Shown here: positions 10,022 to 14,092 of the stretch, one piece after another
How positions within the stretch are numbered: position 1 is the first letter of the stretch
Layout: each line of letters opens with the position of its first letter
Source: a bacterium
Lineage (GTDB): Bacteria; Acidobacteriota; Aminicenantia; Aminicenantales; Aminicenantaceae
Assembly: GCA_018335295.1 (NCBI GenBank)
Contig: JAGXKI010000005.1
Location: 20,658 to 84,657 of the forward strand
Direction: 5' to 3'
DNA: 64,000 nucleotides
Notes under the pieces: model-generated
The model's input: the letters and a program-made list of their open reading frames with translations, nothing else
Database searches by the model: none
Told to the model about the DNA's origin: nothing
Translations under genes and position numbers: made by a program

Positions 10022-10220
10022 CCTTATCCTCCGCACCTTTGGTTGGGTATTGAATCAAATTTTTTTGTTTTCCCTCGAAACTCAAAAGATTTAAAGGGAA
10101 TCTTACTGAAATTTTGAAATTAGAGGGAAAATAGATAGAGAGGTGTTAGTTCCGATGGAGGGAAGACTTTATGAAACAATATTTGATGAAATATTTTTCC
10201 ACGAAATCCATTTCCTACAC

Positions 10221-10249
10221 TTTATACCCAAAGATTTTTCCACTGTCAA
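10221..10249 (-). promoter_or_regulatory. Putative sigma70-type promoter for the his operon (TTGACA, 17-bp spacer, TATAAA on the minus strand)
   Basis: The reverse complement of 10221-10249 reads TTGACAgtggaaaaatctttgggTATAAA, about 175 nt upstream of the hisG start. Confidence 0.4.
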
Positions 10250-10533
10250 GCTATTTTTCTTTAAAAATAAGAAATCGGACCAAAGAAACCTATTCCCGAT
10301 TTTCGCGGAACAACGGAAGAAAAAATTGTTGACAAAACACGCGGATCTATTTATAATCTCTTCGATGTTGAAGACAGACTCTACTGAAACCAGGCTCAAA
10401 GCCTTTTTTTCTTCCCTCCTTCTCTGGTGGGCGGGTTCTTCCGCCCAATAGTCTGTCCATACCTCTATTAAACCTTCCAAAATTTTCACTGGATTAAAAA
10501 TCTATTCTTCAATCAATAAAGGAGATTTAAAAA

Positions 10534-11826
10534 ATGAAACGGTATGCCTTTCGAAAATCCGAATATTTACCTCAAAATTTTTATAATATCAAAGCAGATC
10601 TTCCCAATCTGCCTAAACCTCCCTTGAATCCCCGAAATAAATCCCCTCTGAAACCTCAAGACCTTTCCCCCATTTTTCCAAATGAATTCATCGTTCAAGA
10701 AACCTCCACTGAAAGGGAGTTGCCAATTCCCTCCCCTCTACAGGAAGCCTTTTCGGTTTACAGGCCCACTCCTTTGGTTTATGCTTCTGGGCTTAAAGAA
10801 TATCTTCACACCCCGGCCCATATTTTCTACAAATATGAAGGTGTGGGACCGACCGGAAGCCATAAAAGCAACACGGCCCTGGTTCAAGCCTATCTAGCAG
10901 CTAAAGAAGGAGTAGAAACTATGACCACAGAAACAGGGGCGGGGCAATGGGGCTCAGCCTTAGCTCATGCTGGTTCCATTTTTGGAATCAACGTGAGAGT
11001 CTTTATGGTGCGAATAAGCTACAGACAAAAACCGGGAAGAAGAATCTTAATGAACCTTTTCGGAGCCCAAGTCGAGGAAAGTCCAAGCCCTTCTACGGAA
11101 TCTGGAAAAAAATTCTACTCCCAAGACCCCAACCATCCAGGGAGTCTAGGTATGGCTATCTCGGAAGCTGTGGAACTGGCTGTCCAAAATCCAAACGCGA
11201 AATATTCTTTAGGCTCGGTCCTCGATTGTGTCTTGATGCATCAAACAGTCATTGGTCAAGAAGCTCAAAAACAAATGAAGGAAGTGGGGGCCAAGCCAGA
11301 TATGATTATCGGATGTGTGGGGGGAGGCTCCAATTTTTCCGGACTGGCTTTCCCTTTTGTAGGAGAAAAATTAAGAAAAGAAGAAGAGATTCATTTTATC
11401 GCTGTGGAACCTGAAGTTTGTCCCACTCTGACTAACGGGGATTTAAGGTACGATCATGGAGACAGTGTAGGAGTGACTCCTCTTCTGTATATGCACACTT
11501 TAGGGATGGATTTTGTCCCTCCTCCCATCCATGCTGGAGGTCTCCGCTACCACGGGATGGCTCCCCTGGTCAGTCATCTGGTAAATAAAGGAGAAATCGA
11601 ACCGCGGGCTTTTCCTCAGGAAAAAATCTTCAACGCAGCCCAAACCTTCCTTCAAACAGAAGGAATTCTCCCGGCTCCGGAATCTTCTCATGCTGTGGCT
11701 GCCTCTATCGAGGAAGCACTGAAAGCCAAAAAGGAAAATGAAGAAAAGGTCATTCTGTTTAACCTCTCGGGTCATGGGTTTCTGGATATAAGCGCTTTTG
11801 AGAAGAATTCCCAAAACACTCAGTAA
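10534..11826 (+). CDS. trpB2: Tryptophan synthase beta-chain paralog, TrpB2 type (stand-alone, no trpA or other trp genes nearby)
   Basis: The PLP lysine motif GSHKSNTA and the GGGSN loop are present. The ~430-aa length and N-terminal extension are characteristic of the TrpB2 clade. A good RBS (aaaggag) precedes the ATG. Confidence 0.85.
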   Translation: MKRYAFRKSEYLPQNFYNIKADLPNLPKPPLNPRNKSPLKPQDLSPIFPNEFIVQETSTERELPIPSPLQEAFSVYRPTPLVYASGLKEYLHTPAHIFYKYEGVGPTGSHKSNTALVQAYLAAKEGVETMTTETGAGQWGSALAHAGSIFGINVRVFMVRISYRQKPGRRILMNLFGAQVEESPSPSTESGKKFYSQDPNHPGSLGMAISEAVELAVQNPNAKYSLGSVLDCVLMHQTVIGQEAQKQMKEVGAKPDMIIGCVGGGSNFSGLAFPFVGEKLRKEEEIHFIAVEPEVCPTLTNGDLRYDHGDSVGVTPLLYMHTLGMDFVPPPIHAGGLRYHGMAPLVSHLVNKGEIEPRAFPQEKIFNAAQTFLQTEGILPAPESSHAVAASIEEALKAKKENEEKVILFNLSGHGFLDISAFEKNSQNTQ

Positions 11827-12043
11827 AAAATGGGGACAGTACACCTAATTTCGTTCGAAAATAGCTATTGGCGAATCATATTCTTTTTAAGGATTGAATT
11901 CTGTCACGGGAGGCATCTGATAAGCGAGAAAGGCGAGACGGGCGAAAAAGCGAGAAATGAAAACATCCATACTCCCCATTCTTTATAAAAAGGTATCAAC
12001 CCTCCTTCCCGAAGAAAAACCATTTCCCGTTATACTCCGGTGA

Positions 12044-12321
12044 GGGGGTGATGGGTGAAGAACCCGTATGGAAGCCTGAGTGGGCAGGGTTCCTTGAATG
12101 AAATGAAAGGAGAGCGAAACCGGAAATCGAGCGGATTTGTCTGATTTGTGAGTTTTCACAAATCAGTGGGGTTCCAAGGGGTATGGCCTCTTGGTCGCAG
12201 GGCCTCAGCCCGAGAAGGGAGGCAGGGAGCTTTAGCGACCGTCGGAAGGGGGAAAGGGGAGCTTTTCCCCTCCGAGTTCTCGATGTGGAAAATCCGGCGT
12301 GGTACTGAACCCATCACTCCC
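12044..12321 (+). ncRNA. Candidate structured non-coding RNA of unknown class (GC-rich island between two convergent genes)
   Basis: A ~280-nt tract of roughly 55% GC lies in an AT-rich intergenic space. 5' GGGGUGAUGGGU (12045-12056) pairs with 3' ACCCAUCACUCCC (12309-12321); on the + strand this forms a G·U pair, whereas the minus strand would give an A·C mismatch. Internal perfect hairpins occur at 12141-12166 (10-bp stem), near 12201-12212 (GGGC-cuca-GCCC) and around 12258-12275 (GGGGA-gcuuu-UCCCC). There is no credible ORF. Confidence 0.3.
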
Positions 12322-12394
12322 GAACCCTTTTCATTGGTTGAGGGTGGCGGAGCCGCCATGGGGAATTAGTAGTTCGAAAACAAATTTTTTTTGG

Positions 12395-14092
12395 TTAGGA
12401 AACAATGACCCTGTTTTTTCCCCGGCGCTTGGCTTCATAAAGAGCCCGGTCCGCCTTTTGGATGAGATTCTCTCCATTTTTAACCCGAGAATCGGGTTGA
12501 TAGGCAGCTACCCCAAGGCTCAGGGTGAGAAACAGAGTCTTCTTATCTATATGGAAAGGATTTTCCGCTACTTCTTTTCTTATGCGTTCTCCTATTTTTC
12601 CAGCCTGATCTTTATCAGTATGGGGCATTACCACCAGGAATTCCTCCCCTCCATACCGGCCCACCACATCGTAGGGACGGCAGGAATTTTTGATCCGCCG
12701 GGCGGTCTCCACCAAGATAGCGTCCCCAAACGTATGCCCGTATATATCGTTAGCCTTTTTGAAATCATCCAAGTCAGCCATCCCCACTGTCAAAGATTTT
12801 CCTTCACGTGAAGCCCTCTCTACTTCTTCATGGAGGCGCTTTCTTGATGCTCCGTGGTTCAATAAAGAGGTCAATGAATCCGTAATGGCTTGAATTTTTA
12901 ATTTCTCATTGGCTTTTTTTAACTTTTTCTCCATTTTGATCCGTTCGGTAATGTCCCTGGCCATTCCTTGGGCCGCATAGGGTTTTCCGTTCCGGTAGAT
13001 CACCGAGGCTTTGGTTTCCACATACACGTATGTTCCATCCTTTCTTTTTAACTTAAACTGAGTGAGTTCTTTCTGATATCCCTTTTTTTTCAATTCTTGG
13101 AGTATTTTATCGACCTTGGAGAATTGATCGGAAGATAAAAGTGAAGAAAAGTTTAAATTTCCTATCTCTTCCTTCTTGTAGCCCAATCCTTTCAATGCGG
13201 CCAAATTCGCATCCAGAAAATTTCCATCGAAATCATGAATGAATATCCAATCCATAGACCGGTCAAACAAAGCCCTGTATCTTTCTTGGCTCTCTTTCAC
13301 GGCCTGCTGAGCCTTTCGGCGTTCCGTAATATCTTTGGCTATTCCCTGAGAAGCCACAACTTTTCCTGATTTTACAATGGCGCGGGTGACTAGCTCCACT
13401 GGGATTCTGTATCCATCCTTGTGGAGGATTTCTACTTCAAACGGAGAGGACAAGTTTTCTTGTTTTTGGCGTGATTCCAAGCGCTTCTTGACTTCTTTCC
13501 CGTACCCCGGAGCCAGAATATCTTTCACATTCATGTTTAACAATTCTTTAAGTGAGTATCCAGTCACTCGTTCCGAAGATCGGTTACCAAAGATAAAATT
13601 TCCATCCAAATCAACCTGAAAAATCACATCCCAGGTGTTATCAAGAATTCTTTGGAGCTTTTCTTTCTCTATCTTTAATGAATTTTCCACTCTTCTTCTC
13701 TTGGAAATATCCCTGGCAATAGCGAGATACTCGTTTCGGCCCTCAATGGTTTGACTCTGAAGATTGACTTCAAGGGGAATTCTATTTTTGTTTTTGGAAA
13801 GAACCTCCATCTCCACAACCATTTTTCCCTTCCGGTCGAGCTGTTTTTTTAGAGAATCGATACGGCCTTTTTGTGAAGAAACCACAATATCCTGGGGCTT
13901 TTTCCCTAAAAGACCTTCCCTGGAATATCCCAACACCCTACAGGCTGTGTGGTTCACTTCCACGAAACACAGCCGATCATCCGCTACAAAAATCAAATCC
14001 GGAGCTTCTTCACATAAAATGCGGTACCGCTGCTCCTCGATCAAAGAAGCTTTTTTGGGATAACCTGGAGAACCTTTTTGTTTTTGAGACAA
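12395..14092 (-). CDS. Multi-PAS-domain diguanylate cyclase (GGDEF)
   Basis: Three or four PAS/PAC-like segments are followed by a GGDEF domain with an intact RYGGEEF active site. Confidence 0.85.
   Translation of the reverse strand: MSQKQKGSPGYPKKASLIEEQRYRILCEEAPDLIFVADDRLCFVEVNHTACRVLGYSREGLLGKKPQDIVVSSQKGRIDSLKKQLDRKGKMVVEMEVLSKNKNRIPLEVNLQSQTIEGRNEYLAIARDISKRRRVENSLKIEKEKLQRILDNTWDVIFQVDLDGNFIFGNRSSERVTGYSLKELLNMNVKDILAPGYGKEVKKRLESRQKQENLSSPFEVEILHKDGYRIPVELVTRAIVKSGKVVASQGIAKDITERRKAQQAVKESQERYRALFDRSMDWIFIHDFDGNFLDANLAALKGLGYKKEEIGNLNFSSLLSSDQFSKVDKILQELKKKGYQKELTQFKLKRKDGTYVYVETKASVIYRNGKPYAAQGMARDITERIKMEKKLKKANEKLKIQAITDSLTSLLNHGASRKRLHEEVERASREGKSLTVGMADLDDFKKANDIYGHTFGDAILVETARRIKNSCRPYDVVGRYGGEEFLVVMPHTDKDQAGKIGERIRKEVAENPFHIDKKTLFLTLSLGVAAYQPDSRVKNGENLIQKADRALYEAKRRGKNRVIVS

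Follow-up and report, generated by a model that had tools for sequence, protein, structure and literature searches.

What occupies the 568-nt spacer between a trpB2-like gene and a gene for a PAS-PAS-PAS-GGDEF protein, which converge on one another in a 64-kb window of Aminicenantaceae DNA from contig JAGXKI010000005.1 (the window being the whole stretch analyzed, 64,000 nt in length, to which all positions without a locus name refer)? The spacer holds a GC-rich interval, 12040–12326 (55.7% GC, compared to 42.7% for the whole window), inside which the GC content per 150 nt reaches its peak for the entire 64 kb (0.62), and which a reading of the sequence alone (the sequence-only reading) had put forward as a candidate for an unclassified noncoding RNA of about 300 nt, with both flanking genes ending toward it, as they indeed do. 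Our analysis upholds that proposal insofar as the interval is structured and unclassified, but not insofar as it was taken to be a discrete RNA gene: comparison with homologous copies indicates that the interval is a composite of two nested elements, an outer chassis and an inner unit, each drawn from a dispersed multi-copy family. With moderate confidence, we take the inner unit to be a nonautonomous mobile element of the IS200/IS605 palindrome-associated transposable element (PATE) type.

Searched directly at the DNA level, collections of phage, plasmid, and viral sequences (including IMG/VR) returned no similarity. When the translated 67-aa antisense ORF (open reading frame) of the interval, 12359–12159, was used as a probe against 1.84 billion protein representatives, it matched 11 “hypothetical proteins” through a shared block, ...FPLPTVASLPASPSR... 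(...LEGESxAFPLPTVASLPASPSRA..CDQRGHPPWNP), and the frame shifts between these matched “proteins” therefore place the conservation at the nucleotide level. A profile search recovered 15 such ORFs, several of them from Aminicenantes metagenome-assembled genomes (MAGs), and their contigs (L084–L087) carry clear DNA homologs in unrelated gene contexts. The pattern derived from these, GAGAARGG N0–1 AGGCAGNNAG N9–12 GTNGGAAGGGG, was scanned over JGI metagenome contigs, at least 120 of which match; the family counts given below are drawn from the at least 120 contigs listed, together with the loci found by the probe. With a profile hidden Markov model (HMM), at least 134 copies are detected in the family loci (837 kb in all), 8 of these loci carrying two to three copies, compared to none in other Aminicenantes-like loci totaling 619 kb, a distribution of presence and absence that has the look of lineage-specific expansion. 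Within the 64-kb window itself there is no second copy of the element. The 67-aa ORF and a further 73-aa ORF in the GC-rich interval are noncoding, because reading frames shift among the homologous copies; a small protein-coding gene was rejected on this ground, the ORF being, moreover, lost at locus L080 of a close relative, and the earlier view that the interval has no credible ORF is borne out by the lack of a conserved one. An exact look-up of the window ORFs and of TrpB2 returned no record.

The copies are not tied to any particular gene: with the conserved core of the inner unit masked, no recurrent neighboring gene family is found, and even the commonest neighbor is shared by no more than 7 of ~120 loci, at a distance of over 1 kb, all such neighbors being ordinary metabolic or transport genes. 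An apparent “TonB receptor / DUF5916 leader”, in which 38–39 loci shared a large ORF overlapping the core, was an artifact of ORF read-through and vanished after masking. We note that such read-through ORFs mis-extend real genes (e.g., those of a TonB receptor and a DUF5916 protein), and that at least 22 database “hypothetical proteins” (P0241–P0262) are spurious translations of the repeat in either strand. In addition, 35 of 129 cores are located no farther than 150 nt from the end of a contig.

Covariation supports a fold in the 113-nt core of the inner unit, which nhmmer identifies as the universal part of the family (window ~12168–12281). In an alignment of 103 distinct copies (A3), 27 columns are invariant and 39 nearly so, including the tracts CGAGAAGGGGAGGCAG and GUUGGAAGGGG, and the hairpin tips vary in both length and sequence. 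A four-helix structure (H1, H2a, a small GA-flanked hairpin and H3, Table 1) is paired in 96.0% of cells, compared to 48–64% when the partners are slid by 1–3 columns, and both sides of a pair have changed in 115 cells, compared to 8–29 after sliding; 0 of 500 shuffles reach the observed values. Examples are the column pairs 95–113 (GC65/AU25/CG9), 131–144 (GC44/CG30), and 63–84 (AU82/GC12). An RNAalifold alternative that pairs CCCCCU with GGGGAG is not preferred, given compensatory changes in H1 at columns 63–84 and 68–79, and pseudoknots involving GAGAAGGGGAGGCAG are possible. Among the core pairs, G·U outnumbers A·C by 101 to 27 on the G-rich strand, and the fold therefore belongs to that strand, which is the + strand of the window. 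The sequence-only reading had already singled out the + strand, from a single G·U pair, and had named a comparative alignment and an Rfam scan as suitable checks; the alignment of copies gives clear covariation.

Directly 5′ of the core, every subtype of the family carries a hairpin of arbitrary sequence, H0, which differs between copies. A perfect stem of at least 7 bp that ends no more than 4 nt from the core is present in 61 of 98 copies, compared to 13 of 98 shuffled sequences, and stems of at least 10 bp are present in 41 copies, compared to 0 shuffled (n = 98). In the window, H0 is the perfect hairpin that had been noticed at the outset, with a stem that we count as 11 bp.

Turning to the outer chassis, nhmmer aligns 16 “long” copies from other contigs across ~12049–12316, and a MAFFT alignment of the long copies gives common ends of ~AGGCGAAGGGTATGGG ... 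CCCATACCCCGAGCCT. Window-like copies (type B) share a closing helix, P1, which is tripartite and has internal loops rich in GA, together with a 5′ block (CUGAGCGGGCAYGGUUYC) and a 3′ block (GUGGGAAA..GCGGGC), and the 3′ module of the window chassis aligns to the type-B consensus GACGAUGUGGGAAAC..GCGGGC. The arms of P1 differ between copies yet stay complementary (GGCTAATTGGTTCGAAAAC/GTTTTCGAACCAATTAGCC in L152, and likewise in L136, L181, L092, and L202). The terminal closing helix described from the window sequence is present as 13 bp (GGGGGUGAUGGGU/ACCCAUCACUCCC) with one G·U pair, and its pairing continues into inverted-repeat arms at 12039–12064/12301–12326. The composite has a calculated minimum free energy (MFE) of about –132 to –136 kcal mol–1; for the + strand we obtained –135.9 kcal mol–1 (z = –5.2, with 0 of 100 shuffles as good), compared to –106.8 kcal mol–1 (z = –3.6) for the – strand.

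The nesting is most readily seen at L202, where the outer element occurs without H0 or core, as a 146-nt chassis with a 25-bp P1 (MFE –85.2 kcal mol–1, z = –8.4). The hairpin GCGGGAUUUCC^UCGCUGGGGAAAUUCCGC is intact there, and the same hairpin is split by the inner unit in the window (GCGGAUUUGU[...]CUCGAUGUGGAAAAUCCGGC); the window copy therefore reads as chassis (12040–12140), inner unit (12141–~12280), and chassis again (12281–12326). The chassis, with a long P1 around a few hairpins, spans ~150–170 nt, and the inner unit, composed of H0 and the 113-nt core, ~140–175 nt. At L145, most of the inner unit has been deleted between two AGCGAAGC repeats. We also note that in copies of type C (L138, L144, L123, L202, L173, L090, L099, L140, and L186), the core lies within a long (>40 bp) GC-rich inverted repeat with the arms ...GGCCGCCCCCAGCCCCCGAACCCCGGGGAACCA / GGGCCCCCCTCCGCTACGGGGGCTTGAGGGCGGCC..., which is probably a further repeat family that hosts the unit.

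Is the composite retained at the orthologous site in other genomes? Among GTDB genomes, TrpB2 is matched best by Aminicenantes MAGs, with no more than 75% identity, and the 79 GTDB-genome trpB2 loci share neither spacer similarity nor gene order with the window and serve here as negative background only. Protein searches of Logan assemblies yielded a closer relative (GGDEF ortholog 83% and TrpB2 90% identical) with the same gene order, in which hisG, a small ORF and trpB2 lie on one side of the site, and the GGDEF and phospholipase C genes on the other. At L080 from this relative, the flanks align to the window, and the site consists of a simple hairpin only, GGGGGGGTGAGGGGTGAAATCCCATCACTCCC: ~245 nt (window ~12059 to ~12308) are absent, and the closing hairpin of P1 is kept; two other contigs break off at the element or close to it. 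It follows that the interior is not required, or that its presence varies, while the closing hairpin persists, which speaks against a single ~300-nt RNA gene. TGAA and GAACCC repeats stand at both window junctions, which is consistent with slippage, and we read the L080 hairpin as an internal deletion derivative rather than as a pre-existing terminator, because it resembles P1 of other type-B copies.

A second argument against a single RNA gene is that the inner unit is polymorphic for insertion and carries, at its junctions, motifs such as mobile elements typically have. A Y2 (IS91-family, Y2_Tnp) transposase gene that is uninterrupted in L111:691–1017 is split, by 153–159 nt of H0 and core running antisense to the gene, in L087:266–820, L105:657–1165, and L157:5447–5834. 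The insertion is in frame and stop-free, spans 51–53 codons, and lies between ...HIPDKGQV and (T)VRYYG.YANAHRGK. A functional link to the IS91/Y2 transposase, which might have been read from the antisense ORFs of three copies that begin in the Y2_Tnp gene, was rejected, because the uninterrupted gene in L111 marks this association as insertion. In the G-rich orientation (with a slash at the junction), the empty site reads CCATGAC/CTGCCC, and the filled site ...GTGAC/GGCTTTGG...CTCCAAGGAGAC/CTGG, with the 3′ end of the unit as ...GGAGAC/CTG. In type A, the commonest subtype, the 5′ flanks are unrelated up to TT, followed by GACGAGCGG (24 of 33), and the unit ends 3′ in CUCCAAGUUGAC(U); in 37 copies, CCCUCCAA is followed by GTTGACT, with G, A, and C kept in 95, 74, and 103 of 123, respectively. 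In L108, two copies in tandem meet precisely at TTGAC. The ends of the inner unit (GACGAGCGG.../...CUCCAAGUUGAC) are not inverted repeats, and its flanks carry the fixed TTGAC only, with no variable duplication. A screen of the whole flanks for closing helices with RNAduplex was uninformative. The family thus carries motifs at its junctions like those of IS200/IS605 elements, and the junctions of the window copy lack them, reading ATTTGT/ and GAGTT/ (GAGTT/CTCG). With these degenerate junctions and its position between convergent genes, the window copy is probably old and immobile.

TTGAC is the core of the –35 hexamer, and the junctions have a corresponding promoter geometry. Under a strict rule, a –10-like hexamer lies 16–18 nt past the terminal TTGAC in 16 of 47 copies, compared to 2–3 of 47 at six control offsets; the spacer lengths peak at 17 nt, and by eye a TATA-type box is present in about half. 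In 68 cases vs 39, the gene downstream shares the strand of the element, and the upstream gene is divergent in 51 vs 27. As this strand bias is not absolute, the element is not a regulator in a 5′ untranslated region, and the type A element lies upstream of the transcription start. A riboswitch or 5′ leader was rejected on these grounds: in 39 of 107 cases, the gene downstream lies on the other strand, the type A element precedes the –35 box, and the window copy faces a convergent gene. Simple consensus scans of 11700–12500 found no terminator and no promoter-like site inside the element, the sole promoter-like site lying outside it on the – strand (11907–11880). At L207:1608–1760, the terminal TTGACA is followed by a 17-nt spacer, TAGAAT, and, 7 nt on, the ATG of a TonB-dependent receptor gene, which would imply a leaderless mRNA driven by a –35 box that the element supplies.

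Table 1. Features of the composite element and its flanking genes (window positions; P1, closing helix of the chassis)
Feature	Position	Strand	Basis or remark
trpB2-like PALP gene	10534–11826	+	flank 5′ of the spacer
Composite: outer chassis and inner unit	12040–12326	+	nhmmer, MAFFT, GC, MFE
P1 closing helix, 5′ arm	12040–12067, main part 12044–12056	+	pairs with 12297–12325
Chassis 5′ module	12068–12140	+	conserved in type-B copies, L202, L145
Chassis 5′ hairpin with conserved CUGAGYGGGCAKGGUUCC	12070–12093	+	type-B conservation
GGAGAGCGAA block	12110–12119	+	chassis 5′ module
Hairpin with the inner unit in its loop, 5′ half	12129–12140	+	chassis 5′ module
H0 variable hairpin, 5′ end of inner unit	12141–12166 (12141–12151/12156–12166)	+	perfect 11-bp stem, 4-nt loop
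Conserved core, 113 nt	12166–12282	+	profile HMM match 12168–12279, 80.9 bits, E = 3e-23
H1	12173–12181/12186–12194	+	core helix
H2a	12200–12203/12208–12211	+	core helix
Invariant purine tract CGAGAAGGGAGGCAGGGAGC	12211–12230	+	core
Small GA-flanked hairpin	12225–12230/12235–12240	+	core helix
H3	12242–12252/12266–12275	+	core helix
Chassis 3′ module (CUCGAUGUGGAAAAUCCGGCG, 3′ half of interrupted hairpin) and P1 3′ arm	12281–12326	+	aligns with L202, L145
P1 closing helix, 3′ arm	12297–12326, main part 12309–12321	+	chassis 3′ module
PAS-PAS-PAS-GGDEF gene	12395–14092	–	flank 3′ of the spacer

Elements of the IS200/IS605 group insert downstream of a target-adjacent motif (TAM) and do so without duplicating the target site, and their right end bears a transposon-encoded motif (TEM); gene-less PATEs often encode omega RNAs that are used in trans (PMC10055086). 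Like these PATEs, the inner unit is noncoding, has neither terminal inverted repeats nor a target-site duplication, is inserted 3′ of a fixed pentanucleotide (here TTGAC, as the TAM) and carries the same motif at its own 3′ end (as the TEM). It also shares with them tandem self-targeted insertion, hairpins by both ends, many orphan copies per genome, and a strand-specific, structured, RNA-like module that abuts the 3′ boundary. It is unlike them in that the TAM is here the core of a –35 promoter box that the element regenerates, in that the junctions of the window copy are degenerate, and in that the core matches neither the IS605-orfB nor the HEARO model of Rfam. In a TnpB omega RNA, the scaffold is followed by a 3′ guide that derives from the flank, and the transcript is bound by TnpB; in its geometry, at least, the unit fits such an RNA, as the structured core, on the TAM strand, ends a few nt before the element boundary.

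On the mobile-element reading, the inner unit would move as a single strand, namely the G-rich strand (the + strand in the window), would insert immediately 3′ of a TTGAC motif without duplicating its target, and would bring its own TTGAC at the 3′ end, restoring the –35 box. Because the element re-supplies the TTGAC of the –35 box, insertions into promoters would be harmless and could accumulate. Movement would depend on an HUH-type enzyme supplied in trans, and the multi-helix core would have been retained, most likely, as an omega-type guide-RNA scaffold and/or as a fold recognized by this mobilizing enzyme.

A number of observations weigh against this reading. In a search of the flanks of the ~134 copies, which does not establish absence from the genomes, no TnpA, TnpB, IscB, or reverse transcriptase was found, and so no autonomous partner is known. 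H0 and H3 abut the two ends of the unit and are dissimilar, whereas the end hairpins of IS200/IS605 elements are usually alike, and the sequence of H0 varies between copies, which would be unexpected in a site that a transposase recognizes. Neither the window copy nor other type-B copies have a clean TTGAC at their junctions, and the –10 signal is limited to about a third to half of type A copies. Finally, P1 of the chassis covaries, and therefore speaks of long-term selection on pairing rather than of recent copying, and the invariant purine tracts and compensatory changes of the 113-nt core exceed what the ends of a miniature inverted-repeat transposable element (MITE) or a PATE would need, and would also fit a host RNA.

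This last possibility, in which the copies are paralogous members of a structured RNA family that serves the host (as a multi-copy small RNA, or as a modular domain such as a protein-binding platform or ribozyme) and the core is the functional RNA, is one that we consider unlikely, if the most serious of the alternatives. It would account for the strong purifying selection on the fold, with its variable tips, compensatory pairs, and invariant single-stranded purine tracts, and for the bias of G·U pairs to one strand, the covariation in P1, the very low folding energies, and the lack of mobility genes nearby. It does not sit well, however, with a close relative that has deleted the entire interior at the orthologous site, with a unit inserted antisense inside a transposase ORF, with tandem and nested copies, or with the contrast between 0 copies in 619 kb of related genomes and ~1 extra copy per 80 kb where the family is present; nor is there a conserved promoter or terminator around the copies, and the type A element, lying upstream of the –35 box, falls outside the downstream transcript. 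Another alternative is a portable promoter-proximal module composed of a –35 box and a binding platform, and selected for driving the adjacent gene, in line with the –10-like boxes 17 nt past the terminal TTGACT, the orientation bias toward same-strand downstream genes, and the start codons that lie 30–150 nt downstream in many copies. We regard such a module as distinctly improbable, as 39 of 107 copies (including that in the window) face a convergent gene, the downstream genes are unrelated in function (TonB receptor, cysS, cobO-like, PAS kinase, DUF1846), and helix covariation and G·U strand bias are traits of a single-stranded fold and not of duplex DNA sites. It is also rather improbable, in our view, that the 113-nt core is a new class of functional RNA, self-mobile or with a partner, in which case the family would not be a decayed relative of IS200/IS605 but an RNA-based mobile system that homes to promoters. 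The core could then be a new guide scaffold, used by an uncharacterized nuclease or recombinase that is RNA-guided and has its gene elsewhere in the genomes of Aminicenantes, or a module akin to a ribozyme, with the single-stranded TTGAC of –35 boxes as its target.

Least probable by far is that the interval is a divergent member of a known RNA class (RNase P, 6S, SRP, tmRNA, a cobalamin riboswitch, HEARO, or a group I/II intron) or a GC-rich remnant whose folding is due to chance. We ran cmscan with Rfam 15, whose families include riboswitches, self-cleaving ribozymes, and the IS605-orfB motifs, on the window, on nine family loci (six of them also at a relaxed E-value), and, at E ≤ 10, on a de-nested, chassis-only copy. 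There were 0 matches at gathering thresholds (GA) in the whole window or in L084–L086, nothing credible at 11780–12480 at E ≤ 10, and no match above threshold in the nine family loci or the chassis-only copy, and ARAGORN found no tRNA or tmRNA in the window; the view that the interval falls in no known RNA class has thus stood up to the scan. What can be said for a known class are weak sub-threshold scores, the best being those for Clostridiales-2 (16.2 and 19.8 bits, GA 58.6), followed by whalefall-1 (16.2 bits, GA 37) and RsaJ (11.8 bits), and a likeness of short strings (GUACUGAACCC, GGGGUUC..AAGG), noticed by eye, to E. coli M1 RNA. The weak Clostridiales-2 (RF02937) match, at 16–20 bits, recurs at window 12160–12230 and L163:991–1053, over the GGGGUUCCAAGGGG...CCUCUUGG hairpin, and may reflect chance or a very distant relationship. 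Chance folding of the interval is excluded because the more than 130 homologous copies show covariation.

Two further classes of element were considered and rejected. A DDE-type MITE would not describe the inner unit, which is without terminal inverted repeats and target-site duplication; for the chassis, the P1 arms resemble terminal inverted repeats, but there is no duplication in 12 flanks, and the arms covary without conservation of their sequence. An integron attC site, a single imperfect hairpin whose R″/R′ core sites (RYYYAAC/GTTRRRY) pair and which stands in cassette arrays, does not fit ends that are unpaired with each other, without core-site motifs and without a cassette context. 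Among small dispersed repeats, ERIC/IRU, BOX, Correia/NEMIS, RUP, REPIN, and Rickettsia RPE are essentially single long imperfect palindromes, or have terminal inverted repeats and target-site duplications; some Correia repeats carry promoter boxes, and some RPE insert in frame into genes. The present family is like them in being small, noncoding, multi-copy, strongly folded, and modular or nested, with internal deletion variants, and the in-frame copies in the Y2 transposase gene recall RPE; unlike them, its inner unit is multi-helix, with invariant single-stranded tracts, compensatory substitutions, and no inverted ends. With HEARO, raiA, ROOL, and GOLLD it shares a GC-rich island in an AT-richer genome, multi-stem covariation, and discovery from metagenomes; it differs from these in that there is no match to them, and in being multi-copy, nested, polymorphic in presence, and tied to an insertion motif.

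Several features around the element deserve mention in their own right. The part of the spacer at 11830–12039 is A-rich, with direct repeats of AAGCGAGAAA at 11922 and 11948, a palindrome (11847–11882), and an inverted pair (11824–11836/11973–11985); parts of it are conserved in the relative (the tail of L083, and L080), and both of the relative's contigs break inside this stretch. P1 of the window copy is followed by CCCUUUUC, and together they may, at most, help to terminate the trpB2 transcript or stabilize its 3′ end. On the other side, a hairpin, GGTGGCGGAGCCGCCA, lies at 12343–12359, just downstream of the GGDEF stop codon (– strand). At the equivalent position in the relative stands another palindrome, GAATTCTCCATGGAGAACC, and an A/T run stands ahead of both hairpins (AAAAAAAATTTG in the window; palindrome AAAAAAATTTTTTT in L080); this is probably the terminator region of the GGDEF gene, evolving by replacement. 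For the GGDEF gene itself (12395–14092, – strand), the database ortholog with 100% identity, P0001, is annotated with 549 aa, compared to 565 aa for the longest ORF, which has a TTG start. An ORF of ~102–107 aa between hisG and trpB2 is present in both the window (10143–10451, + strand) and the relative (L083:1883–2206), the L083 copy being without a Pfam match on record, and is possibly a real small gene.

Taken together, the family appears, as judged from its alignments and distribution, to be a large, unclassified group of noncoding, structured, dispersed repeats in Aminicenantes-like sediment bacteria. A limited literature search on structured RNA in Aminicenantes gave no description of it. 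The kind of element is known, both as small noncoding structured repeats and as nonautonomous IS200/IS605-like elements, and the family itself is not in Rfam 15; what is unusual is the complexity and conservation of the core, the habit of nesting, and the apparent homing to, and regeneration of, –35 boxes. In practical terms, the repeats break assemblies, leaving contig ends, and spawn spurious “hypothetical proteins” in databases. The family joins structural conservation of the grade seen in riboswitches with the habits of small mobile repeats: it nests, inserts in tandem and, in one gene, in frame, and expands in lineage-specific bursts. As a rule, the two are met with separately. Were the proposed mechanism true, homing to –35 boxes followed by self-replacement would make the element a parasite invisible to its host and, at the same time, would provide a phylum that is uncultivated and little studied with portable promoters, and, if the core is a guide-RNA scaffold, it would point to an unrecognized RNA-guided enzyme in these genomes.

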